Positions 1-9,314 of a stretch of 35,576 nucleotides of DNA are shown piece after piece. The notes beneath the pieces were generated by a model. That model did no database searches. It saw only the letters and a program-made list of their open reading frames with translations, and was not told the origin of the DNA. The stretch is from IMG/VR virus record IMGVR_UViG_3300046507_000662; one strand, 5' to 3'. Source of the stretch: an uncultured virus (IMG/VR IMGVR_UViG_3300046507_000662). Its lineage: Duplodnaviria > Heunggongvirae > Uroviricota > Caudoviricetes. The number at the start of each line of letters is the position of its first letter. The stretch's first letter is position 1. The position numbers were made by a program, and so were the translations under genes.

Positions 1-350
1 TCGCCCATGGTGACGGCGGTGACCTTGTCGCCGTTCGGGCCGTGGAAGTGGAACGCGATCCGCATCAGCACCGCATTCTGCCTGCCCCGCACCTCCGTCT
101 TGAAGTCAAGGACCTCCGGGGTCATGACGACACCGTGGTCCCGCAGCGGCTGCGCCAGGGCGCCGATCGCGTCGTCCACGCCCCGGAACCTGTAGTTCTG
201 CGACTCGTTCGTCCCGTTCTTGCCGATGTTGCGGACGTCCCGCATCACACGGGCCATCAGCTCGTAGACGTTCGGGGCGTCCTGGTTTTGGGTGTGCTGG
301 GTGGGGCCCTCCGCCGTCGTGCTGGCGGGGGCCTCGGTGGCCGTGGCCAT
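1..350 (-). CDS. erf: ERF-family ssDNA-annealing protein (N-terminal part; runs off the window edge)
   Basis: Not in the ORF track. Manual translation from ATG at 350 (RBS AGGAG): MATATEAP...VYELMARVMRDVRNIGKNGTNESQNYRFRGVDDAIGALAQPLRDHGVVMTPEVL...FHFHGPNGDKVTAVTMGE, an ERF-like N-terminus. Confidence 0.8.
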   Translation of the reverse strand, partial: MATATEAPASTTAEGPTQHTQNQDAPNVYELMARVMRDVRNIGKNGTNESQNYRFRGVDDAIGALAQPLRDHGVVMTPEVLDFKTEVRGRQNAVLMRIAFHFHGPNGDKVTAVTMG

Positions 351-376
351 GAGGTCTCCTTGTGATGCGTGATGTG

Positions 377-420
377 GCGGCCGGCCCGGGGAAGTGGTCC
401 TTTCGGCCCGGGCCGGCCGC
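377..420. terminator. 14-bp perfect GC stem-loop between genes
   Basis: GCGGCCGGCCCGGG (377-390) / CCCGGGCCGGCCGC (407-420). Confidence 0.55.
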
Positions 421-427
421 GCGGCCG

Positions 428-1027
428 CTACTCGGCGGCCGCCTCAGTTCCTTCGGCCGGGGCCGGGTACTTGCGGGCGATCCACTGCACCGCGATCTGC
501 CGGGCGTTCAGCTTGTAGCCCCGCCCGGTCGGCCAGTCCTTCTCCGCGACCATCCGGTCCGCCGCAGCCTCCACCTCGGCCACCTTCGCCTTCGGAGCCC
601 GCACATTCAGGACCGACTTCGCCTGACCCGCCCCGTGCGCCGCACGCTGCGGACGCTCCGGCACGAACTCGCCGGACAGGAAGGCCTCCCAGCCCTCCAG
701 GACATCCGCCGTCAAGTTGGCCGACCCCTCATAGGCGCGCAGGTGCAGCGCCGACTCGATCGGGATCGCCACGTTCGGGTCCCCGCCCTGCGAAGACCTT
801 GCCTCGGCCTGGCCGGCCGCGTTCAACGCGTACTCGAGAACGGTCTGCACCGCATCCGCCTGCCGCACAGCGCCACGCGAACGCAGCGACTCGATGGCCA
901 GCTCAACCTGCGGGGCGGCTTCAGTGACGCGGGCGCGCTTGCTCGGGGGCATGGAAACGGCGTGTCCTTCCGGTCGCCGGCGCCGCTCTGTGCGTCCGGG
1001 CGGGCGCCGCGTGTGGGGTGTGGGCAC
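428..1027 (-). CDS. Hypothetical protein, possible ribbon-helix-helix-like DNA-binding regulator
   Basis: GTG at 1027 after GGAGGAG RBS (alternative ATG at 952); C-terminal KSVLNVRAPKAKVAEVEAAA is strand-helix like; first gene of the leftward promoter. Confidence 0.65.
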   Translation of the reverse strand: MPTPHTRRPPGRTERRRRPEGHAVSMPPSKRARVTEAAPQVELAIESLRSRGAVRQADAVQTVLEYALNAAGQAEARSSQGGDPNVAIPIESALHLRAYEGSANLTADVLEGWEAFLSGEFVPERPQRAAHGAGQAKSVLNVRAPKAKVAEVEAAADRMVAEKDWPTGRGYKLNARQIAVQWIARKYPAPAEGTEAAAE

Positions 1028-1100
1028 GCCTAGTCTCCTCCATTTTCTATTGCGCGCACACCGGGGGGTGTGTGCTCCCGGGCCGTTCCCGGTACCCCAG

Positions 1101-1148
1101 ATCATACGCACCCTTGTATTGCGCGCGCAATAGATAGATGGGTAAGGT
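1101..1148. promoter_or_regulatory. Divergent sigma70-type promoters centred on palindrome TATTGCGCGCGCAATA
   Basis: Perfect 16-bp palindrome 1117-1132. Plus strand TTGCGC(1119)-18-TAAGGT(1143); minus strand TTGCGC(1130)-18-TATGAT(1106). Extra half site TATTGCGCGC at 1048-1057. Confidence 0.7.
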
Positions 1149-1179
1149 GGAACCACACCAAGCGAGGGGGACCCCACCA

Positions 1180-1614
1180 ATGCGCATCACCAAGAACCAG
1201 ACGGTCCGCAAGACCCTCGCCGACCTGTACCGCGCTATCGATAACGGCCACGTCGTCACCCTCACGTACACCGGACGGGACGGCGTCACCAAGGTCCGGA
1301 GCGTGGAGCCCTTCGAGATCAGCACCACCAGCGAAGGCGAGATCCGCGTGCACGCCATGTGCCGCCTCGCCTACGCCGATGACCCCACCGACGCAGAGCG
1401 CGCCTTCACGATCGCCCGCGTCCTCTCGTACACGGTCCACCGCATGGCCTTCGTCCTCACCCGCCCCGAGCCCACCACCTACGAGCGCCCCGCCCCGGCC
1501 CCCACCGACGACGCGCAGGCCCTGTTCTTCTACGAGCTGGCCCGCGACACGGACGACGCCGACTACCGTCCTCGGGTACGTCTTACCCAGACCGACACCG
1601 ACCTTGCCGCATAG
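1180..1614 (+). CDS. Stand-alone WYL-domain protein
   Basis: AIDNGHVVTLTYTGRDGVTKVRSVEPFEI...HAMCRL...ERAFTIARV fits the WYL pattern (Y...R.VEP...CxLR...RxFxxxRI); no N-terminal HTH. Confidence 0.8.
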   Translation: MRITKNQTVRKTLADLYRAIDNGHVVTLTYTGRDGVTKVRSVEPFEISTTSEGEIRVHAMCRLAYADDPTDAERAFTIARVLSYTVHRMAFVLTRPEPTTYERPAPAPTDDAQALFFYELARDTDDADYRPRVRLTQTDTDLAA

Positions 1615-1623
1615 GAGGAAGCC

Positions 1624-1833
1624 ATGCGCGCCGTACAGGAACGCATCCCGTCGTACAGCACCAGCATCCCGGACCGCTTCATCTGGCACCGACCCAACGG
1701 TCGACCGGTGGAAGACTTCCAGGCGATCGCATGCAGCACCGAGGAAGGCATCACCCTGCCGGGGCCGTCGCGCGAGATCCCTGCGTCCGACGCCAACTGG
1801 TGCCAGGACTGCAGGATTCCGAAGGCAACCTGA
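1624..1833 (+). CDS. Small hypothetical protein with C-terminal CxxC
   Basis: Strong RBS AGGAGG; WH...IAC...WCQDC. Confidence 0.75.
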   Translation: MRAVQERIPSYSTSIPDRFIWHRPNGRPVEDFQAIACSTEEGITLPGPSREIPASDANWCQDCRIPKAT

Positions 1834-1847
1834 CTACCGATACGACG

Positions 1848-1881
1848 AAGGCCACCGCCCAAACCGGGCAGGTGGCCTTTT
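1848..1881 (+). terminator. Intrinsic terminator
   Basis: AAGGCCACCGCCC-loop-GGGCAGGTGGCCTTTT right after the stop codon. Confidence 0.75.
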
Positions 1882-2220
1882 CACACTGATCGCGCACGCG
1901 CATCGTAACCCGGGAACTCCCCATGCAGGTAGATGCGTTGTGGAACTTTCTGGGGGCGTGCCTGCGGGCCCGGCTGGTGGAGAGCGCGGGCCCGCAGCAG
2001 GGGCGGGAGCGCAAACTGGGGGTACTCGCTGCGACCGCCGTCCGGGCACCGTACGTCCCACAGGCCCCGCGGGGGAACACCCGGGACGTGCGGAATTCCC
2101 CTGGCTGGCGCGCCGGGAGGGGAGCAGGGGCAACGCCGGCCCGCTCCCGTCATACGGTGCTCGTACCGGCCCCGGTCACCACCCCCGGGCACCCGGAAAC
2201 CCCGTCTGACCTGCCACTCT

Positions 2221-2333
2221 GCAAAACTTCGGAGCCCCCCACCCTTCCAGCCGCACACGCGCGGCCCCGCCCCGCACATCCCCACGATCCGCACCCACGG
2301 CGGTCAGGGGCTGAGGTGGCTCCGAAGTTTTAC
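2221..2333. repeat. Inverted repeat (14 bp perfect, 17/19 extended) with about 80-bp spacer
   Basis: AAAACTTCGGAGCC 2223-2236 / GGCTCCGAAGTTTT 2318-2331. Confidence 0.8.
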
Positions 2334-2370
2334 CAAGTAGATCAACAAGGGTTTCGGGCAAGATAAGACC

Positions 2371-3237
2371 ATGGACCCCGTCGACCTGCTCAACGACTGG
2401 CTCGCCACCAGCGCGCTGCGGCCCTCCACCCGTGCCGAGTACGGGCGCGAGATCGGCTACTTCATCGCCTGGTGCGCCCGCCAGACGCCGCCCGTCGACG
2501 TCCTCACCGCAGGCCCCGCCGACATCGCCGCCTGGTCCCACGACCACCACCTGCACACCCTCCTCGACGGGCGACCCTTCGACGGACCCGACGCCCTCGG
2601 CTACCTCGCCGCCACACACCCCGACGCCGCCCGCACCCACGACCGCCGCATCACCGCCCTCACCCAGTACTACGAAGCCGCCAGGAACCGCGGCCACATC
2701 ACCCTGCCCCCCGACCTGTCCGTACTACGCTCCGGCGTCCCCCGCCCCGCCGGCGCAAAAAACCGCCTGGACCCCCGCGAACGCGCCGTCCTCCTCGCCT
2801 GCACCGGCGGCTGGGGACCGCAGCGTTCCAAGCACTACCAGCGCGACCAGCTCATCGTGTACCTCCTCCTCGAAGGCCTGCGCCCCGCCCACGTCGTCCG
2901 CATCGACCGCCGCCACCTCTACCCCCAACCCGACGGCTTCTGGGACATCCGCGCCCCCGACGACCACGAGAACGTCGGCCGCAAGTTCACCCTCGACCCC
3001 CTCACCGGCGCCGCCCTCAAGGCCTACCTCGCCGTACGACCCGAGCCGGTCGAACCCGACGAGCACGCTCTGCTCCTCAACACCCACCGTCGGGCACTCT
3101 CCTCCGGCTGGCTGAACATGCTCATCGGTCAGATCGCCGCCACCCACCCGCTGTTGGCCGACCGCGACCCCGCCATCACCGCCGACGCCGTCGCCCACAC
3201 CGGCCTGTGGGACACGCCAGCGAACGATGCGCAATGA
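2371..3237 (+). CDS. Tyrosine-recombinase-like protein lacking catalytic residues
   Basis: SAM-like N-domain (LRPSTRAEYGREIGYFIAWC...RRITALTQYY) and box I (RDQLIVYLLLEGLRPAHV) present; box II reads TADAVAHT instead of TPHxLRHT and the ORF ends before the catalytic Tyr. Confidence 0.75.
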   Translation: MDPVDLLNDWLATSALRPSTRAEYGREIGYFIAWCARQTPPVDVLTAGPADIAAWSHDHHLHTLLDGRPFDGPDALGYLAATHPDAARTHDRRITALTQYYEAARNRGHITLPPDLSVLRSGVPRPAGAKNRLDPRERAVLLACTGGWGPQRSKHYQRDQLIVYLLLEGLRPAHVVRIDRRHLYPQPDGFWDIRAPDDHENVGRKFTLDPLTGAALKAYLAVRPEPVEPDEHALLLNTHRRALSSGWLNMLIGQIAATHPLLADRDPAITADAVAHTGLWDTPANDAQ

Positions 3238-3270
3238 TCGCCTTCCAGGACGTGGCGAAGGAGACCAGTC

Positions 3271-3465
3271 ATGGTGGGCAAGGGCCGAAAGGTCAGCGGC
3301 GCGGAGCGCGACAAGCTCGCCGCCGATTTGAAGAAGGCGTACGAGAGCGGCGTCTCCATCAGGGCGCTGGCCGAGGGCACCGGGCGGTCGTACGGCTTCG
3401 TCCACGGCATTCTCACCGAGGCCGGCGCTACCCTGCGCAGCCGAGGCGGAGCCACTCGCAGCTAA
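3271..3465 (+). CDS. Small HTH protein resembling the Streptomyces nucleoid-associated protein Gbn (SCO1839 family)
   Basis: RDKLAADLKKAYESGVSIRALAEGTGRSYGFVHGILTEAGATLRSRGG; RBS AAGGAG; family match is from memory. Confidence 0.75.
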   Translation: MVGKGRKVSGAERDKLAADLKKAYESGVSIRALAEGTGRSYGFVHGILTEAGATLRSRGGATRS

Positions 3466-3511
3466 CCCGACGCGTGAGCCAACCAGGCTGGAAGCGGCTC
3501 ATGGCGTGTCG

Positions 3512-4612
3512 TCATGCTCCGCTCCCTGTGAATCGGTCGACGAGGCGGTCGTACACGGCCACGGCGGCCGCCGCGTGCTGCCGGCGCCGCGCGCTGGAGT
3601 CCCGCCGCCGGATGTAGCGCAGCGTCGTCTCCACCGCGGCGTGGTCGGCGTACTCCTGGATCTCCTCAATGGCGGTGCCCGCGTCGTGCATGTGGGTCAG
3701 CTTGGAGGCGCGCAGGACGTGCGGGGTCAGGTCCCGGCCGGACAGCACGCCTGCCTGTTTGCCGAGGCGGGTGAGGAGTCGGTCGATGGCATGCCGGTCC
3801 ATGGGCCGGTCCTGGTCGTCCAGGAGCAGCGGCCCGTCGGTGCGGTCGGTGGTGGCGACGTCGATGAGGTCGCACAGCCGCTCCGGGAGCGGCCAGACGC
3901 GGCCCTTGCCGCCCTTCCTGCGGAGGTCCAACGTGCGTTCCCCGCCCGTCTCTTTGAGGTGGTAGAGCTGCGCGGTGCAGGACTCGGAGACCCGGCCGGC
4001 CAGCGTGTAGAGGAGGACGGGCACGAGGGCCTCGCGCGCGGTGGCGGCGGCGTTGACGACGGCCTGGAACTCGGGGACCTCGAGGATGGGCGTGGCGGTG
4101 GTCTCGTCGCGGGGGTCGACGCGGGGCCGGTCGTGCTTGGTGACCGGGGACGCGATGGCCTGCTTCGTCTTCCACGCCGCGTACTCGGTGAGGGCGGTAA
4201 GAACAGACAGGCGCCGGTTGATGGTGCGCGGGGCCTTGTCCTGCGCCTTCTGCGTCTTGGTCCAGGTCTCGATGATGCCGGGGGTGATGGCGCCAACGAA
4301 GAACCGCTCGTGCCCGCCCAACTCCCGGGCGACGGTGGCCCAGAGGCGGAGGTCGTCGGCGTAGGCCTGCTTCGACTTCACCGCGGGGACGGCTTCGGAG
4401 CCGAGCCAGGAGGTGACGAGGAGGAAGGTGTCGCGGTCCAGGAGCTCGGCGAGCAGCTCGAGCCGGTACCGGCGCTCACCGAGGCGCCGGGTGCGGGGGT
4501 CGCGGGGGGCGACGGTGCCAAGGATGTCGCGGAGCCAGAACAAGGCCTCTTGTGCGGCGCCCGGGCGTTCCAGCTCTGCGCGGGGTCTGGCGGTGACGGT
4601 TTGCTCGGTCAC
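3512..4612 (-). CDS. XerC/D-like tyrosine recombinase (intact catalytic set)
   Basis: R (LAGRVSE), K (RRKGGK), HxxR (TPHVLRAS), H (ADH), Y (TTLRY); GTG start at 4612 overlaps the upstream TGA. Confidence 0.9.
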   Translation of the reverse strand: MTEQTVTARPRAELERPGAAQEALFWLRDILGTVAPRDPRTRRLGERRYRLELLAELLDRDTFLLVTSWLGSEAVPAVKSKQAYADDLRLWATVARELGGHERFFVGAITPGIIETWTKTQKAQDKAPRTINRRLSVLTALTEYAAWKTKQAIASPVTKHDRPRVDPRDETTATPILEVPEFQAVVNAAATAREALVPVLLYTLAGRVSESCTAQLYHLKETGGERTLDLRRKGGKGRVWPLPERLCDLIDVATTDRTDGPLLLDDQDRPMDRHAIDRLLTRLGKQAGVLSGRDLTPHVLRASKLTHMHDAGTAIEEIQEYADHAAVETTLRYIRRRDSSARRRQHAAAAVAVYDRLVDRFTGSGA

Positions 4613-4914
4613 CTCGAAGTGTCCTTCTGGGGAGTGGACGTGCGTGGCGCGAAGACAAGGGTGGCGTGCCACATGTCGTCCGGATCCATCACGCGCTGGA
4701 TGTCCGCGACTTGGTAACGGGTGGATCGGTCCTGCCCCTTGTCCAGGAGGAGGTAGTCGCCTTCCTGGATGAGGACACCGTCGTGTCCCCAGCCGGACAC
4801 GCTGATGCGCTGTCCGCTGTCGAGGACCTTGGTGATGGAGTAGTCGTGGCCCCAGAACCGGCGGCCGGGTCCGAAGTCGTGCGTCTTGGGCTCCTGCTGC
4901 GTTCTCTTCAGCAT
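4609..4914 (-). CDS. Hypothetical protein
   Basis: 101 aa, GC3-biased, translationally coupled to the recombinase; TAGCCT lies 6 nt before the ATG (possibly leaderless). Confidence 0.7.
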   Translation of the reverse strand: MLKRTQQEPKTHDFGPGRRFWGHDYSITKVLDSGQRISVSGWGHDGVLIQEGDYLLLDKGQDRSTRYQVADIQRVMDPDDMWHATLVFAPRTSTPQKDTSR

Positions 4915-5094
4915 GATCCGAGGCTACCCCCCTTGCCCTTAACACACGTTAAGCGCTTCTCCCTACGCGATCCTGCGTCGGCGGCCGGTCGTCGGCCAGC
5001 TCCGCGGCGACCACGTCGTGGCAATCGGTCATGACGTGCGGAGTATCCCTCTTCGGAATATCCATTATCCGGAGCCAGACGGCTTGATCCCCCG

Positions 5095-5376
5095 TCAGTC
5101 CTCCTGCGCCAGCTTCTGGCGTGGGGAGCGGCTGTGTCCGCGGGCGATGCCGCTGACGCGCTCCGGTTTCACGCCGAGAGCGGGCGCCATGTCGGTGTAG
5201 CTGATGCCGTCGCGCTCGTGGAGGGTGCGAACAACGTGCTGACGGCGCTCGCGCAGCGCCTTCTGTAGGTCCGGCATCGCCTTGAGTACGGCGCTGAGTT
5301 GGGCAGCCTGCTCGATGCTCTCGGGTCCATCGAGCAGGGCTTCGAGCTGTCGAATTGCCTCGGGCGTGGGCGTCAT
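5095..5376 (-). CDS. HTH repressor-like protein
   Basis: RRQHVVRTLHERDGISYTDMAPALGVKPERVSGI HTH; leaderless promoter upstream. Confidence 0.8.
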   Translation of the reverse strand: MTPTPEAIRQLEALLDGPESIEQAAQLSAVLKAMPDLQKALRERRQHVVRTLHERDGISYTDMAPALGVKPERVSGIARGHSRSPRQKLAQED

Positions 5377-5382
5377 GGGGTG

Positions 5383-5451
5383 AGCGTAGGGCCGTCACCG
5401 CAAAGAATCAAGTGGGTCCCACTTGACGCTATTGATGGGACCCACTAAATT
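5383..5451. promoter_or_regulatory. Divergent promoters with operator palindrome TCAAGTGGG-T-CCCACTTGA
   Basis: Palindrome 5408-5426, second site TGGGACCCACT 5436-5446. Plus strand TTGACG(5423)-17-TAAATT(5446); minus strand TTGATT(5411)-17-TACGCT(5388)-6-ATG. Confidence 0.8.
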
Positions 5452-5489
5452 GGAGGTATCGAAGGACGCAGAACCCAAAGGAGACGGTC

Positions 5490-6026
5490 ATGGCGCAGCG
5501 GTGGTGGACCCTCGGCAAGCAGGACATGAACGAGACTGCCGGACGGAACGGCCACACCCTCACCTGGAAGCAGATGCCGCGCCCGACCCGCGAGCACGCC
5601 CTGTACTTCGAGGGCACCTGCACCGACTGCGGAGCCACCGTCCAGATCGGATCCGGCTGGTCCTCCTGCCGCACCATCCGCGACGCCCGCAACGAGACCT
5701 GCTCCGGTCCCGGCACCGCCGTCCTCGCCGAAGTCGAGCAGAACCGCGCCGACGAGCTGGTCGGCGACGCGATCGGCGAGTACCTGGAGGCTCTTGCGGA
5801 CGCGGGCATCACCTTCGCCCGCCCGCAGGTCCCGTTCCGTAACCCGCTGACCCCCGGAGACCGCTGCGGGCTGATGAGCCGCGACGGCTACACCTGCACC
5901 CGCCGGCTGAACAAGCGTGGCACCCACAACGGCAACGAGTGGGGCGGCCCCGACGGTCATGTCGGCAGTCGGCCTGGCGACGACTTCACCCGGCCTTTCA
6001 GCGACGACGACCTGCTGATGGCCTGA
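5490..6026 (+). CDS. Hypothetical Cys/His-rich (zinc-binding) protein
   Basis: RBS AAAGGAG; GH...CTDC...C and C...CTR...H motifs. Confidence 0.75.
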   Translation: MAQRWWTLGKQDMNETAGRNGHTLTWKQMPRPTREHALYFEGTCTDCGATVQIGSGWSSCRTIRDARNETCSGPGTAVLAEVEQNRADELVGDAIGEYLEALADAGITFARPQVPFRNPLTPGDRCGLMSRDGYTCTRRLNKRGTHNGNEWGGPDGHVGSRPGDDFTRPFSDDDLLMA

Positions 6027-6063
6027 GAAGGACCCGAAGCAACCCACTAGCAAGGAGATCAAA

Positions 6064-6324
6064 TTGAACGTCAAGACGCGCGAGCAGGCGGCGGCCGAGG
6101 TGCGGTCGATGTCCGCCAAGCTGAGCGATGAAGTGCTGTGCCTCTCCTGGATGGGCACCGAGGGCAAGCCCGTCACCCAGGAAGTCGCCCTCGTGCGGGG
6201 CTGGATCATGGATGAACTGAACGAGCGCCTCGGTGACGACCTGTTCGACGAGTGGCTGATGGCCGTCGACGAGGACGGCAATGGCGTCAACCCGCTGGCT
6301 TTCTTCGAGAGCATGGGCAACTGA
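6064..6324 (+). CDS. Hypothetical protein
   Basis: TTG start after AAGGAG; GC3 bias. Confidence 0.75.
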   Translation: MNVKTREQAAAEVRSMSAKLSDEVLCLSWMGTEGKPVTQEVALVRGWIMDELNERLGDDLFDEWLMAVDEDGNGVNPLAFFESMGN

Positions 6325-6338
6325 CCACCGGACAATGC

Positions 6339-6375
6339 GCGGTGCCCCCGGCTGAGGAAAGCAGCCGGGGCACCG
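6339..6375. repeat. Hairpin repeat, copy 1
   Basis: GCGGTGCCCCCGGCTG-AGGAAAG-CAGCCGGGGCACCG; near identical to 8663-8698. Confidence 0.85.
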
Positions 6376-6391
6376 CCCGCACCGTATCCGA

Positions 6392-6670
6392 ATGGAGAAC
6401 TGCATGGAGTGTGACCGTTGCGACGGGACGGGCCTCGACCCGGACCGGTACACCGAGCAGCAGGAACCTGGCGGGGCCGCCGGGTACAGGACTGAGCCGT
6501 GCGCCGAATGTCAGGACGGATGCTGGTGCGGCCACCCGAAGGACCGGCACTGGAGTGACGCCGCGAACATGACGTTCCCTGATGGCTGTCACGACTGCCC
6601 CGGCTGGGACGGCGCCCACGCCTACGGTCAGGAACTCCCCTGGGCCGCCGACTACGCCACTGAGCAGTGA
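6392..6670 (+). CDS. Small Cys-rich protein (DnaJ-like CxxCxGxG motif)
   Basis: CDRCDGTG...CAECQDGCWCGH...CHDC. Confidence 0.7.
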   Translation: MENCMECDRCDGTGLDPDRYTEQQEPGGAAGYRTEPCAECQDGCWCGHPKDRHWSDAANMTFPDGCHDCPGWDGAHAYGQELPWAADYATEQ

Positions 6671-6682
6671 GGATCACGAACT

Positions 6683-6982
6683 ATGGATGAGACACCCGCC
6701 GTCGACCTTCCGACTCTGGCCGCCGCCCTCGACGGCCTCCACACCCTCATCGCCACCAGTAGCCGCGACTGGCAGACGTACCGCGTCGACGCCTGGATCT
6801 GGGCCGTCCTCTGCGGCTGGGACTGCGAGCAGGCCGAGCACGACGAGACATGCACGCATGGCGCCCTGGAAGAGACAGCCGCAATGCACGGATGGGACGA
6901 CGACACCGTGGCCAAGGCTCGCCGATACCGGGCCGCCATCCGCGCGGTCGTCGAGGCGCAGGAGGATGGGGCGCAGACGTAG
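6683..6982 (+). CDS. Hypothetical protein
   Basis: RBS GAGGA; GC3 bias. Confidence 0.75.
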   Translation: MDETPAVDLPTLAAALDGLHTLIATSSRDWQTYRVDAWIWAVLCGWDCEQAEHDETCTHGALEETAAMHGWDDDTVAKARRYRAAIRAVVEAQEDGAQT

Positions 6983-7020
6983 GCTGCCCCGCCCGCGAGA
7001 GCAAGGCGTAGAATCCGGCT

Positions 7021-7200
7021 AGGCGTTGATCGCCGCAGGACTCCCACCAAATGAAGAGGGGCGACGATAGGGATGGGATGCCGGTCCGGGCCTAAGGGCC
7101 CCTGAACCGGCGAGGCTTCCGCACCACGGCCTGAACGCGGACCCTGTTGCCCCGCCCGCAAGAACCGAAGCCCCGCCATCGTGCGGGGCTTCGGCGTGTT
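7021..7200 (+). ncRNA. Candidate structured small RNA
   Basis: -10 TAGAAT at 7009-7014; nested stems plus a possible pseudoknot; terminator at 7165-7200; no convincing ORF. Confidence 0.4.
7165..7200 (+). terminator. Intrinsic terminator
   Basis: CCGAAGCCCCGC-catcgt-GCGGGGCTTCGG followed by CGTGTTCT. Confidence 0.7.
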
Positions 7201-7289
7201 CTGCGCCGCATGTGAGCTTATCCAAAACCAGAACGGGTGATCTCCGTGCGGCGCGCCCCAACTCCCGTGCCACTAACGTGGATACACGA

Positions 7290-7318
7290 GTGACAGACGT
7301 GCGAGGGTGCGATACCGT
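7290..7318 (+). promoter_or_regulatory. Putative promoter
   Basis: GTGACA-17-TACCGT upstream of the gene at 7366. Confidence 0.4.
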
Positions 7319-7365
7319 CTTCGTTAGAACCTCGTCCATTCTCGTCAGTTACTACGGGAGCCCGC

Positions 7366-7932
7366 ATGCGGATCACCGTCACGGTGGACCAACCCACACC
7401 CGACTTCCAGGCCAAGCTCCTCGCCCTTCTCGCCGAACATGCCGAGGACGTCGAGACCGACACGACCTGGACCGAGGAACGCGCCACCCACTACTACCGG
7501 ATGCTTCCGGCCCGCGCCCGACGCATCGTCAAGGAAGCCGTCGAACGCGGTGGCATGGTCCCGGCCGACGCGCTCCGCGACAAGCCCGACGACAGCCTGC
7601 GCGGCCACAGCGCCCCGCTCAGCCGCATCCTCCAGCGCGGCAAGATGCTCAGTCGCTGGCCTGAGGGCATCGACCAGCCGGTGAAGCCCCTCGGGCCCGG
7701 CTTCGGCAAGGTCGAGGGCTACGAGATCGCCGACGACCTCATCTCCGTCTTCGAGACCGCCATCCGCAACGTAGAGAATCTCCACTCCGCCAGGGTCAAC
7801 GAACTCCGCAAGTCCATCCGCGCCAACCGGCCAGAGCCCATCGACGATGCACCCCTCCGTGACGCGGTGGCCCGGCAGGACGCAGCCGCGCGCACCAACC
7901 GGGAGCCGACCGACCGCGACGACGAGAAGTGA
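7366..7932 (+). CDS. Hypothetical protein, possible winged-helix domain
   Basis: RBS GGGAG; WTEERATHYYRMLPARARRIVKEAVERGGMVPADALR...SLRG; GC3 bias. Confidence 0.75.
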   Translation: MRITVTVDQPTPDFQAKLLALLAEHAEDVETDTTWTEERATHYYRMLPARARRIVKEAVERGGMVPADALRDKPDDSLRGHSAPLSRILQRGKMLSRWPEGIDQPVKPLGPGFGKVEGYEIADDLISVFETAIRNVENLHSARVNELRKSIRANRPEPIDDAPLRDAVARQDAAARTNREPTDRDDEK

Positions 7933-7948
7933 GGACACCGACCATGGC
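7913..7948 (+). repeat. 36-bp gene-junction direct repeat, copy 1
   Basis: ACCGCGACGACGAGAAGTGAGGACACCGACCATGGC. Confidence 0.9.
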
Positions 7949-8156
7949 CAGCGTCCCCGTATTCCTGCACTTCCCGGATGGAGAGTCTCCGCTCGTCGAG
8001 ATGGCGGCTGTTCCTCGGCAAGGCGACACCGTTGAGTGGTCCGGCGATCCTTACAGCGAGTGGACTGTCACAAGGGTCGCCTGGACGGCAATGCCCGATC
8101 AGCCTGGCGGCGTGGGCCTGCACCTCGCGCCAGCCAACCGCGACAACGAGAAGTGA
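7944..8156 (+). CDS. Small hypothetical protein (70 aa)
   Basis: ATG at 7944 within the repeat, RBS GAGGA. Confidence 0.7.
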   Translation: MASVPVFLHFPDGESPLVEMAAVPRQGDTVEWSGDPYSEWTVTRVAWTAMPDQPGGVGLHLAPANRDNEK

Positions 8157-8172
8157 GGACACCGACCATGGC
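8137..8172 (+). repeat. 36-bp gene-junction direct repeat, copy 2
   Basis: ACCGCGACAACGAGAAGTGAGGACACCGACCATGGC (one mismatch to copy 1). Confidence 0.9.
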
Positions 8173-8644
8173 TACCGCAGCGCCACCGTCTCCCGTCCTC
8201 CTGCTGCCGACCAACGACCCAAGGCTTGTCGAGAAGGCCGCTGTCGACGGCATTGTGGACGGCTTCGAACCCGAGACGTTCCTGTGGATCGTCTTCCACC
8301 GTCCCGACGGTGGTACCCGCATCTGGTACGCCTGGACCGTTGGCGGGACCGACCTCGGTGACCGCGTTGACCGCTTGGCCCTCGCCGCCGGGCTCGACAG
8401 CGCCGACTGGTTTCACATCGGCGACCGGCACTGCCAGCATTCCACCCGAGGACGCATCGGGATCCAGGCGTACGCACTGCGCCCGATCCTGGCGGACGTG
8501 CAGAACGGTGTCCGTAGTCCGGAAGAGCGCAGGGAAGGGCTGCGCCGCATCGTGCGGAAGGCGGCTGAGATGACCGGCCAGACGCCGCGCACCCTGACTC
8601 CGCGCTGGCTCGGGGTCGGCCCCACCCTGCTCAACCACAAGTAG
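8168..8644 (+). CDS. Hypothetical protein
   Basis: ATG at 8168 within the repeat; GC3 bias. Confidence 0.75.
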   Translation: MATAAPPSPVLLLPTNDPRLVEKAAVDGIVDGFEPETFLWIVFHRPDGGTRIWYAWTVGGTDLGDRVDRLALAAGLDSADWFHIGDRHCQHSTRGRIGIQAYALRPILADVQNGVRSPEERREGLRRIVRKAAEMTGQTPRTLTPRWLGVGPTLLNHK

Positions 8645-8662
8645 AGCCCCGCCCCACACGCT

Positions 8663-8698
8663 GCGGTGCCCCGGCTGAGGAAAGCAGCCGGGGCACCG
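8663..8698. repeat. Hairpin repeat, copy 2 (probable terminator between converging genes)
   Basis: GCGGTGCCCCGGCTG-AGGAAAG-CAGCCGGGGCACCG. Confidence 0.85.
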
Positions 8699-8707
8699 TC
8701 ATGCACG

Positions 8708-8875
8708 CTACTTGCCGCCGCGCGCCGCCTCTACCGCCGCCAGGCAGACGACGCACAGGGGGCAGCCGCCGAGCCCGTACCGGTGGGTGGGGTGGCCGCA
8801 GCCCGCGCACGGGCCGACCTGGGCGGGCGCGCACACAGGTGCGGGAGGGACGGGACGGGCTGCAGTGGTGCTCAT
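8708..8875 (-). CDS. Small zinc-finger protein
   Basis: GPCAGCGHPTHRYGLGGCPLCVVC; TACGAT lies 6 nt before ATG 8875 (leaderless). Confidence 0.65.
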   Translation of the reverse strand: MSTTAARPVPPAPVCAPAQVGPCAGCGHPTHRYGLGGCPLCVVCLAAVEAARGGK

Positions 8876-8933
8876 GGCGCCATCGTACGTACGCGCGACC
8901 TTCAGCCCTGACCGGAGCATCAAGTAGACGCCA

Positions 8934-8978
8934 GAATCCCCCCGCCACCTGCCGTGATGGCAGGTGGCGGGGGGATTC
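8934..8978 (-). terminator. Late operon terminator
   Basis: 20-bp perfect stem GAATCCCCCCGCCACCTGCC / GGCAGGTGGCGGGGGGATTC. Confidence 0.75.
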
Positions 8979-8987
8979 CATAGTGGG

Positions 8988-9314
8988 TCACAGGGTGGGC
9001 GCGGGGGTGAGCCCGTTGCGTGCGGCGATGTCGAGGCCCTGGCGGGCGAGGGCCACGCAGCGCGGCGGGAGCGCGGACACGTCGCGGCCGGCGAGGATTC
9101 CGTCGATCGCGGCGTGAACGTTCATGTGGTCCGTCGGACAGATGGCGACGATCGGCGTGTCGATGGTCTTCCCAGCGACCGCCCACCAGGACTTAGGGCA
9201 GACGTGGTGCCGCTCCAGGATCGCGCAAGCATGCCGTTTGTAGAGGGTGCAGGAGCGCAGCAGCACCCGCCCGTCAGTGACGGCGAGCTCCCGCGGTGTC
9301 GGCGGTTCATGCAT
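8988..9314 (-). CDS. Small HNH-like endonuclease
   Basis: ERHHVCPKSW...IVAICPTDHMNVH. Confidence 0.7.
   Translation of the reverse strand: MHEPPTPRELAVTDGRVLLRSCTLYKRHACAILERHHVCPKSWWAVAGKTIDTPIVAICPTDHMNVHAAIDGILAGRDVSALPPRCVALARQGLDIAARNGLTPAPTL

Follow-up and report, generated by a model that had tools for sequence, protein, structure and literature searches.

A truncated tyrosine-recombinase-fold protein and its upstream inverted repeat in a predicted Streptomyces plasmid-prophage

A stretch of 35,576 nucleotides from an uncultured virus of the Caudoviricetes (IMG/VR record IMGVR_UViG_3300046507_000662), here called the window, carries two convergent genes of the tyrosine-recombinase type. 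The first, at 2371–3237 on the plus strand, encodes a truncated protein of 288 amino acids that is predicted to be catalytically dead; we refer to the gene and its product as the dead gene and the dead protein. The second, at 3512–4612 on the minus strand, encodes an intact tyrosine recombinase, or integrase, of 366 amino acids. A gene for a small DNA-binding protein of the HTH_58 family (3271–3465, plus strand) lies between them, and an inverted repeat is found directly upstream of the dead gene. An initial annotation, made from the sequence alone, had recognized that the two recombinase genes converge, as we also find, and had proposed that the dead protein is a maintained accessory factor in a three-protein site-specific recombination module.

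Fold, active site and conservation of the dead protein

The GC contents at the three codon positions of 2371–3237 were 0.74, 0.50 and 0.91, indicating that the gene is coding in this frame, in agreement with the clean frame and codon bias described in the initial annotation. The dead protein had no match in Pfam (even at E 10), PHROGs or NCBIfam. Its AlphaFold2 model had a mean pLDDT of 90.3. The best Foldseek matches of this model were XerA, XerH, Cre, Tn1549 Int and lambda Int, with E values from 3.6e-7 (XerA) to 1e-4. With VIA-align, the model (residues 1–288) was aligned to XerH over 254 residues (Z 17.5, rmsd 7.2), and Z scores of ~14 and 13.5 were obtained for Cre and XerD, both domains being covered in the alignments to XerH and Cre. 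The modelled protein thus has the two-domain fold of tyrosine recombinases, in which a helical core-binding domain is followed by the larger part of the catalytic domain, in line with the core-binding domain proposed earlier. The Pfam model of the SAM-like core-binding domain (PF02899) was also recognized in some members of the dead-protein family. In a profile search of PDB sequences with the family, the best row was 9i5v_14 (E 0.023), a 401-residue chain that bears the name "Ribosome-associated translation inhibitor RaiA". The part of it that was aligned looks recombinase-like, with a box I of the form GLR..SE and a PHVL motif, and the name or the chain composition of this entry may deserve scrutiny.

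The active site was mapped with the help of P0135, an active relative that is detectable by sequence (E 1.7e-5). R171, in the motif EGLRP, corresponds to Arg I and was invariant across 31 family sequences, as were many other Arg, Trp and Tyr residues in the same alignment. When the profile of these 31 members was aligned with P0135 by hhalign (probability 97.8%), the segment TADAVAHTG of the family fell opposite SAYTLRHTC of P0135, which places D272 and A275 at the His and Arg positions of the HxxR motif. The chain ends 13 residues past this position. In the structural alignments, the last aligned residue of the model was paired with residue ~307 of Cre, 327 of XerH and 267 of XerD, the last of which we take to precede His/Trp III and the Tyr. 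For Cre and XerH, comparison with the residue numbering in Table 3 of PMC10516654 indicates that the dead protein stops before both of these residues. The initial annotation had read box I Arg as kept, HxxR as DAVA and the stop as preceding the Tyr, and all three points were confirmed. Lacking the R-K-H-R-H/W-Y set of active enzymes, the dead protein should be unable to cleave DNA by the mechanism of its family. The word paralogue, by which it had been related to the intact recombinase, goes too far, as no sequence relation between the two was detectable (BLASTP E 0.51; hhalign probability 0.35%).

The truncated form is widespread. The dead protein has 258 homologues, many of them on plasmid-like contigs of ~85–95 kb, and the best 120 of the 258 were all 276–305 amino acids long. 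An exhaustive search for representatives gave three full-length clusters of ~290 amino acids, together with more distant proteins of 254–300 amino acids. Among five distant relatives with 26–36% identity, four (P0130, P0133, P0137 and P0141) stop directly past a motif resembling ITAD..AH(S/T), which in the fifth (P0136) is degenerate; the active relative P0135 runs on through the His and Tyr region. Full-length dead genes were also compared across 24 loci, namely the window itself, 6 plasmids and 17 genome contigs, and in all 24 the reading frame was open and ended at the same motif. The shared length class and the same stop point in relatives of only 26–36% identity argue that the dead gene is not a recent pseudogene, and no close full-length homologue with both HxxR and Tyr was encountered. 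By these comparisons the dead gene is an old truncation that has been maintained, as the initial annotation supposed.

The Nei-Gojobori dN/dS was 0.20 for the closest pair of dead genes and 0.3–0.5 for pairs with ~70–77% amino acid identity, and integrases with 76% identity gave 0.43–0.47. More distant pairs gave values near or above 1 (median 0.91 over 276 pairs; control integrases 0.11–0.47). The ratio over all 276 pairs was set aside as a measure of selection, because synonymous sites are saturated and bound by composition: dS reaches a plateau of ~0.2–0.6 at a GC3 of ~0.9.

The inverted repeat and the promoter-like block

The left arm of the repeat occupies 2216–2243, with an exact core at 2223–2236, and the right arm occupies 2311–2338, with an exact core at 2318–2331 that ends 39 nt before the ATG of the dead gene. 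The exact cores are 14 nt each, and the conserved part of an arm is ~16 nt, about TTAC-R-R-AAC-Y-TCGG. Between the arms lies a C-rich segment (2244–2310) with three CCGCAC motifs, which is constrained in length and occurs both ways round in related elements.

The repeat was present 5' of the dead gene in 21 of the 22 loci examined, with the right arm ending 27–43 nt before the ATG, although in three of the 21 (L006, L011 and L012) its score was not above the best of 20 shuffled sequences. It was not found 5' of the dead gene in L023, where the ORF may extend upstream. In L027, which belongs to another type of element, a perfect 22-bp repeat precedes the dead gene. The core-to-core outer distance was 106–110 bp in 17 of the 21 loci, those matched by the motif pattern, and the intervening sequence was divergent. 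The arms change together. At arm position +3, a T was found in 12 loci and a C in 9, and the two arms agreed in all 21; they agreed in 20 of 21 loci at position −2 and in 19 of 20 at position −4. The alignments thus show that the variable positions covary between the arms.

The motif appears to be confined to this place. Only two exact copies occur in the 35.6-kb window, and the other matches, with 3 mismatches, are at chance level. On C29, a 93-kb contig from the genome of the nearest relative of the window, the two upstream copies were the sole matches at up to 2 mismatches. This relative (locus L008, Streptomyces olivochromogenes DSM 40451) shares with the window a DNA block at 2165–3213 of 94.9% identity, which spans the repeat and the gene and ends at the 3' end of the dead gene; the integrase of L008 is of another type than that of the window. 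Judged from such blocks, what accompanies the dead gene is the inverted repeat in front of it, and not the integrase.

The possibility that the repeat is the attP site of the integrase was rejected because near-identical repeats adjoin unrelated integrases. ARAGORN found no tRNA anywhere in the window, and there is accordingly no attP signature of the tRNA type. A search of Rfam with positions 1–9000 gave a single sub-threshold chance match.

A conserved block on the plus strand (2338–2370) fills the space between the right arm and the ATG. In the window it has a −35-like TAGATC at 2338–2343 and a GGGCA..ATA motif just before the ATG, and among the loci the same block shows TTGATC or TAGATC followed by the GGGCA..ATA motif. 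A scanner for consensus sigma-70 promoters gave no match at 2338–2370. We read the block as a putative promoter, probably for a leaderless or short-leader mRNA.

The neighbouring genes and the surrounding element

The product of 3512–4612 matched Phage_integrase (PF00589, E 9.8e-18) and Phage_int_SAM_1 in Pfam, and the gene has a GC3 of 0.93. The catalytic residues R207, K233/K236, H298, R301, H324 and Y333 were invariant in an alignment of 32 integrase sequences. The protein therefore has the R-K-H-R-H-Y set of active tyrosine recombinases that had been ascribed to it, and is predicted to be active. Its GTG start (4612–4610) overlaps by 4 nt (GTGA) the stop of an upstream gene on the same strand, 4609–4914, which encodes 101 amino acids and belongs to phrog_8812. 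A small gene is found at the integrase start in relatives as well, overlapping by 4 nt in L004, L005, L015 and L019, by 1 nt in L003, by 8 nt in L016 and by 17 nt in L001; in L004, L005 and L015 it is a DUF6221 gene. The product of 4609–4914 is likelier than the dead protein to be a dedicated partner of the integrase, and it may be a real one, for example a directionality factor.

An integrase of the window type is common to L003, L011 and L017 as a homology block that starts at 3508, 3530 or 3536 and ends at 4611. This block corresponds almost exactly to the ORF, and the integrase is swapped among the plasmid-prophages as a gene-sized cassette. L007 was also counted among the related loci that exchange the block 3508–4611.

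The HTH_58 gene starts 33 nt past the end of the dead gene, and its match to the family is strong (E 4.2e-29; 100.7 bits vs a gathering cut-off of 23.8); the label "nucleoid-protein-like" given to its product is a gloss of the initial annotation. No terminator-like site was found in a scan of 1600–5500, and co-transcription of the dead gene and the HTH_58 gene, as suggested initially, is plausible. However, an HTH_58 gene lies 3' of the dead gene in only two of the 24 loci, the window and L012. In the other loci the slot after the dead gene holds a PIN gene, a SpoIIE-type phosphatase, a DnaJ-type zinc-finger protein, other small genes or nothing, and the HTH_58 gene is thus variable cargo rather than a conserved part of the locus. 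The equivalents of this slot (3238–3511) behave as a cargo hot spot, in which DnaJ-type CxxC zinc-finger proteins and DUF6233 or DUF6300 proteins were also seen; in L010, ORFs of 174 and 599 amino acids with no Pfam match are inserted. In the window, the 46-nt gap between the convergent stops of the HTH_58 and integrase genes (3466–3511) contains a short GAGCC...GGCTC inverted repeat. This may be a bidirectional terminator, uncalled by the scanner because it has no run of T.

The window has a G+C content of ~70%. Its minus strand carries, from 10.8 to 35.5 kb, a structural and lysis module of siphovirus type with genes for HNH, terminase, portal, protease, scaffold, capsid, tail, tape measure and endolysin proteins. 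At the left end lie a fragment of an ERF recombinase gene (3–350) and a WYL-domain gene (1138–1614, plus strand; annotated with Pfam and PHROGs). The dead gene sits between the early genes and the integrase, in a rightward operon that is led by the WYL gene and is divergent from the early ERF/methylase/WhiB operon. By analogy with temperate phages, which house maintenance functions in such a region, the dead gene may be placed among the genes of lysogeny or maintenance. In most related loci the WYL gene is kept where its operon and the early ERF operon diverge, and the WYL protein is a candidate for control of the lysis-lysogeny decision or of the plasmid state. The longest ORFs of 1138–1614 (plus) and 428–1180 (minus) overlap at their 5' ends, and their starts need revision. 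Further downstream, a non-coding 91-nt stretch at 1973–2062 is 95.6% identical to L009, compared with ~80% for the adjoining dead-gene region; it is confined to the closest relatives (L001, L008 and L009) and has no Rfam or tRNA match.

DNA and proteins akin to those of the window were found on circular Streptomyces plasmids of 86–94 kb, including pSLE1 and pSAM1, and further relatives were whole-genome contigs of similar size. Synteny of pSLE1 with the plasmid-phage pZL12 has been described, together with "two genes encoding putative integrases" on pSLE1, which were taken as a hint of chromosomal insertion and of which the dead gene was counted as one (PMC4487206). These plasmid relatives and the synteny of pSLE1 with pZL12 place the window in this group, as a portion of a Streptomyces plasmid-prophage of ~90 kb resembling pSLE1 and pSAM1. 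pZL12 itself did not appear among the matches in the collections used. Among virus records the nearest, G001, is a fragment of 18.6 kb that lacks the dead gene, and a tblastn search of 50,697 phage records was negative. Literature searches, whose coverage did not extend to the pZL12 paper, returned no description of the dead-recombinase family.

Possible roles of the dead protein and known systems

We tentatively favour, at somewhat less than an even chance, the reading that the dead protein is a non-catalytic, integrase-derived and sequence-specific regulator that binds the two arms and controls at least its own promoter. In this scheme a tyrosine recombinase would have been domesticated, keeping the C-shaped clamp for DNA and losing the chemistry. 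The protein would bind the two inverted ~16-nt sites, ~108 bp apart and directly 5' of its own promoter, with one monomer on each arm, and the intervening DNA would be bridged or looped. The outcome would be an autoregulated regulator in the lysogeny or maintenance region of a ~90-kb plasmid-prophage, with a function like that of the integrase-fold master repressors MrpR/YopR and SroF of SPbeta-like Bacillus phages, and the nearness of the integrase would reflect the layout of a lysogeny module and not an obligate partnership. We infer the binding of the repeat, the regulation of transcription and its target from four features taken together: the DNA-embracing fold that has been kept, the covarying sites with fixed spacing at the gene's own promoter, the WYL-led operon and the precedents of MrpR and SroF.

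Several points weigh against this interpretation. The repeat could be recognized instead by the WYL protein, by a host factor or by the integrase, or could act as a hairpin. There are two copies of the motif only, both at the dead gene's own promoter and not dispersed over the element as in the case of MrpR, so that control of the lytic genes finds no support in the distribution of the sites. As the main repressor, the WYL protein at the divergent promoter is at least as good a candidate. The structural match of the dead protein is better to true recombinases (Z 14–17.5) than to MrpR and SroF (Z 10–12), and there is no sequence similarity to the latter; the profile search of PDB sequences gave three rows at E up to 1, none of which was MrpR, YopR or SroF. 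The dN/dS values are informative for the closest pairs alone, dS being saturated. Finally, an intact recombinase lies within 8 kb of the dead gene in 23 of the 24 loci, a second type of element included, which also fits a recombination-linked role.

Such a role is the subject of the most serious alternative, close to that of the initial annotation, namely that the dead protein assists the neighbouring integrase as an accessory subunit in integration/excision or in the resolution of plasmid multimers. It could serve as an architectural or directionality factor, as a competitive inhibitor, or as a cap that accepts but does not donate a C-terminal helix. The linkage is indeed frequent. A convergent ORF with a Phage_integrase domain was found within 3.3 kb downstream of the dead gene in 21 of the 24 loci, of which L001 and L014 were counted on weak Pfam matches (E 5e-4 and 1.4e-4), and in L023 and L027 an intact recombinase lies 4.5–6.7 kb upstream on the same strand. 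The latter two, on contigs of 152 and 155 kb, represent another element type, with DUF2637, a polyvalent ART/2'-5' RNA-ligase protein and a JmjC-like gene. In addition, the dead protein has kept both DNA-binding domains of a recombinase, and in the Tsy element, as described in PMC10293859, a second recombinase-type protein (TnsF-like) and a small HTH protein can act together with an active recombinase.

However, the partner is not constant. The neighbouring integrases fall into several groups that did not detect each other by tblastn, and the dead proteins of the window and L008, which are 98% identical over the tblastn match and 96% identical in the tree alignment, stand beside integrases of different types. 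The cassette-like exchange of the integrase (3508/3530/3536–4611) and the small upstream gene that each integrase has overlapping its own start also argue against this alternative. The plasmid pCQ4 has an integrase of the window type (77% identity) and no dead gene, and L020 has the dead gene with no recombinase within 8 kb. The alignments show that the integrase is exchanged independently of the dead gene. A conserved short flanking site beside the integrase was looked for among the relatives, and none was detected. Prediction of a complex between the integrase and the dead protein scored 0.00 in two runs, which gives no verdict either way and is not taken as evidence. The proposed three-protein module therefore stands as far as the presence of an intact recombinase near the dead gene is concerned (21/24), and fails for the HTH_58 gene (2/24) and for a specific integrase, as the subfamilies are unrelated. 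We consider the accessory-subunit explanation unlikely, though deserving some weight.

The dead protein might also serve the plasmid-prophage in a different way, through site-specific DNA binding that does not involve its own promoter, such as incompatibility or copy control, superinfection exclusion, defence, or the marking of a hairpin that the repeat would form and that would be related to packaging or replication. Among the matches listed, the family is largely confined to plasmid-like contigs of ~85–95 kb, the slot just 3' of the gene is a hot spot for cargo (PIN, SpoIIE-type phosphatase, HTH_58), and the constant geometry of the repeat would suit a structural DNA element. Nevertheless, neither the window nor the 93-kb contig of the relative has extra copies of the site, and the candidate replication genes of pSLE1 (encoding an HTH protein and DciA) and its ParAB genes are located elsewhere, ~10–15 kb away. 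A function as replication initiator was set aside for this reason, and a defence role was set aside because PADLOC returned nothing for the dead protein. Altogether we regard this family of explanations as distinctly improbable.

The orientation of the segment between the arms raises a further alternative. This segment, 81–94 bp long, has the orientation of the window (A) in 16 loci and the reverse orientation (B) in four, L005 (pSAM1), L006, L024 and L027; one of the 21 was too divergent to call. B segments aligned to the others only as the reverse complement, with z up to 15–17, compared with at most 3 in the forward direction. In a maximum-likelihood phylogeny of the dead proteins, the B state is scattered and needs at least three changes. 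The segment could therefore be an invertible switch, whose arms are recognized and synapsed by the dead protein while the exchange is made by another recombinase, by host recombination or by template switching in replication. Inverted repeats directly beside a recombinase-family gene are the layout of invertons of the fimS/FimBE type, and the layout here is the same. On the other hand, the B segments are most like each other (0.73–0.74 among L005, L006 and L024, vs 0.6–0.7 to reversed A types), and because of this resemblance one or two old inversions followed by module exchange are an alternative to repeated flipping. No strand-change joint at the repeat was found in contigs from four DNA metagenome runs, although contigs drop rare variants; contigs in two of the four runs break near the repeat, which proves nothing. 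No promoter was recognized inside the segment. Moreover, a segment of 81–94 bp is very short to be inverted by a recombinase, and a loop between inverted repeats also flips with no recombinase involved. We hold a switch of this kind to be quite improbable. A two-part version, in which the dead protein would recognize and synapse the arms ~108 bp apart and the adjacent active recombinase, whatever its subfamily, or a host enzyme would flip the segment to set the plasmid-versus-lytic state, is very improbable indeed; if true, it would place such a switch in a widespread Streptomyces plasmid-prophage family.

Whichever role is correct, the family is common, with its homologues including genes on the named plasmids pSLE1 and pSAM1, and annotation of these genes as "integrase" is misleading. 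The covarying site pairs offer a natural set of variants on which the specificity of protein-DNA recognition can be tested.

The regulator reading that we favour can be compared with several known proteins. Its closest likeness is to MrpR/YopR of SPbeta and SroF of phi3T, which are phage-encoded, have the two-domain recombinase fold and have lost recombination; for the dead protein, a binding role of this kind is proposed. In VIA-align, the dead-protein model matched SroF with Z 11.7 and MrpR/YopR with Z 10.3, at 10% sequence identity. MrpR is described as a master repressor with a tyrosine-recombinase fold and without recombination activity that binds a repeated element (PMC10516654), and the SroF monomer as wrapping a 26-bp A-tract box with both of its domains (bioRxiv 10.1101/2025.11.27.690993). 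The yopR operon of SPbeta also holds an Xre-type HTH protein (YopO) and a XerC-like protein (YopP), according to PMC8612738, a composition that resembles the set of dead gene, HTH gene and integrase in the window. There are also clear differences. According to Table 3 of PMC10516654, MrpR is full-length (320 amino acids) and keeps the Tyr, having lost Arg I, His and Trp/His, whereas the dead family has kept Arg I and lost the whole C-terminal segment. The MrpR element is dispersed in the prophage, whereas the dead family has two sites at its own promoter. MrpR and SroF occur in SPbeta-like Bacillus phages, and the dead family in plasmid-prophages of Actinomycetota. The two groups likely have independent origins.

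Other known proteins are more distant in function. TnsF of Tn6022-like Tn7 elements is described as using an inactivated tyrosine-recombinase domain as a module for DNA binding and bending, and in the Tsy element, which contains a tyrosine recombinase, an HTH protein and a TnsF-like protein, the TnsF relatives function together with the active recombinase and the small HTH protein (PMC10293859). TnsF carries zinc fingers at its N terminus, selects a target in the chromosome (comM) and acts with transposition proteins of Tn7; none of these features is seen here. Active Xer proteins, Cre and phage integrases are the best structural matches of the dead protein (XerH Z 17.5, Cre ~14, XerD 13.5), and unlike them the dead protein has neither the HxxR pair of His and Arg nor His/Trp III, the nucleophilic Tyr or the C-terminal helices. 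Some integrases, such as P4 Int, repress their own promoter (cited in PMC8612738); P4 Int is thus a recombinase-type protein acting at its own promoter, but an active integrase, whereas the dead protein is predicted to be catalytically dead.

The reuse of a dead integrase-fold protein as a DNA binder in mobile elements is therefore already known. What is new in the dead family is the truncation with Arg I kept, the occurrence in Actinomycetota, the lack of any Pfam, PHROGs or NCBIfam model, and the pair of sites whose spacer has been flipped in evolution. If the proposed binding is correct, the family would be a second and apparently independent case, beside MrpR and SroF, in which phages have turned the integrase fold into a non-catalytic DNA-binding protein.

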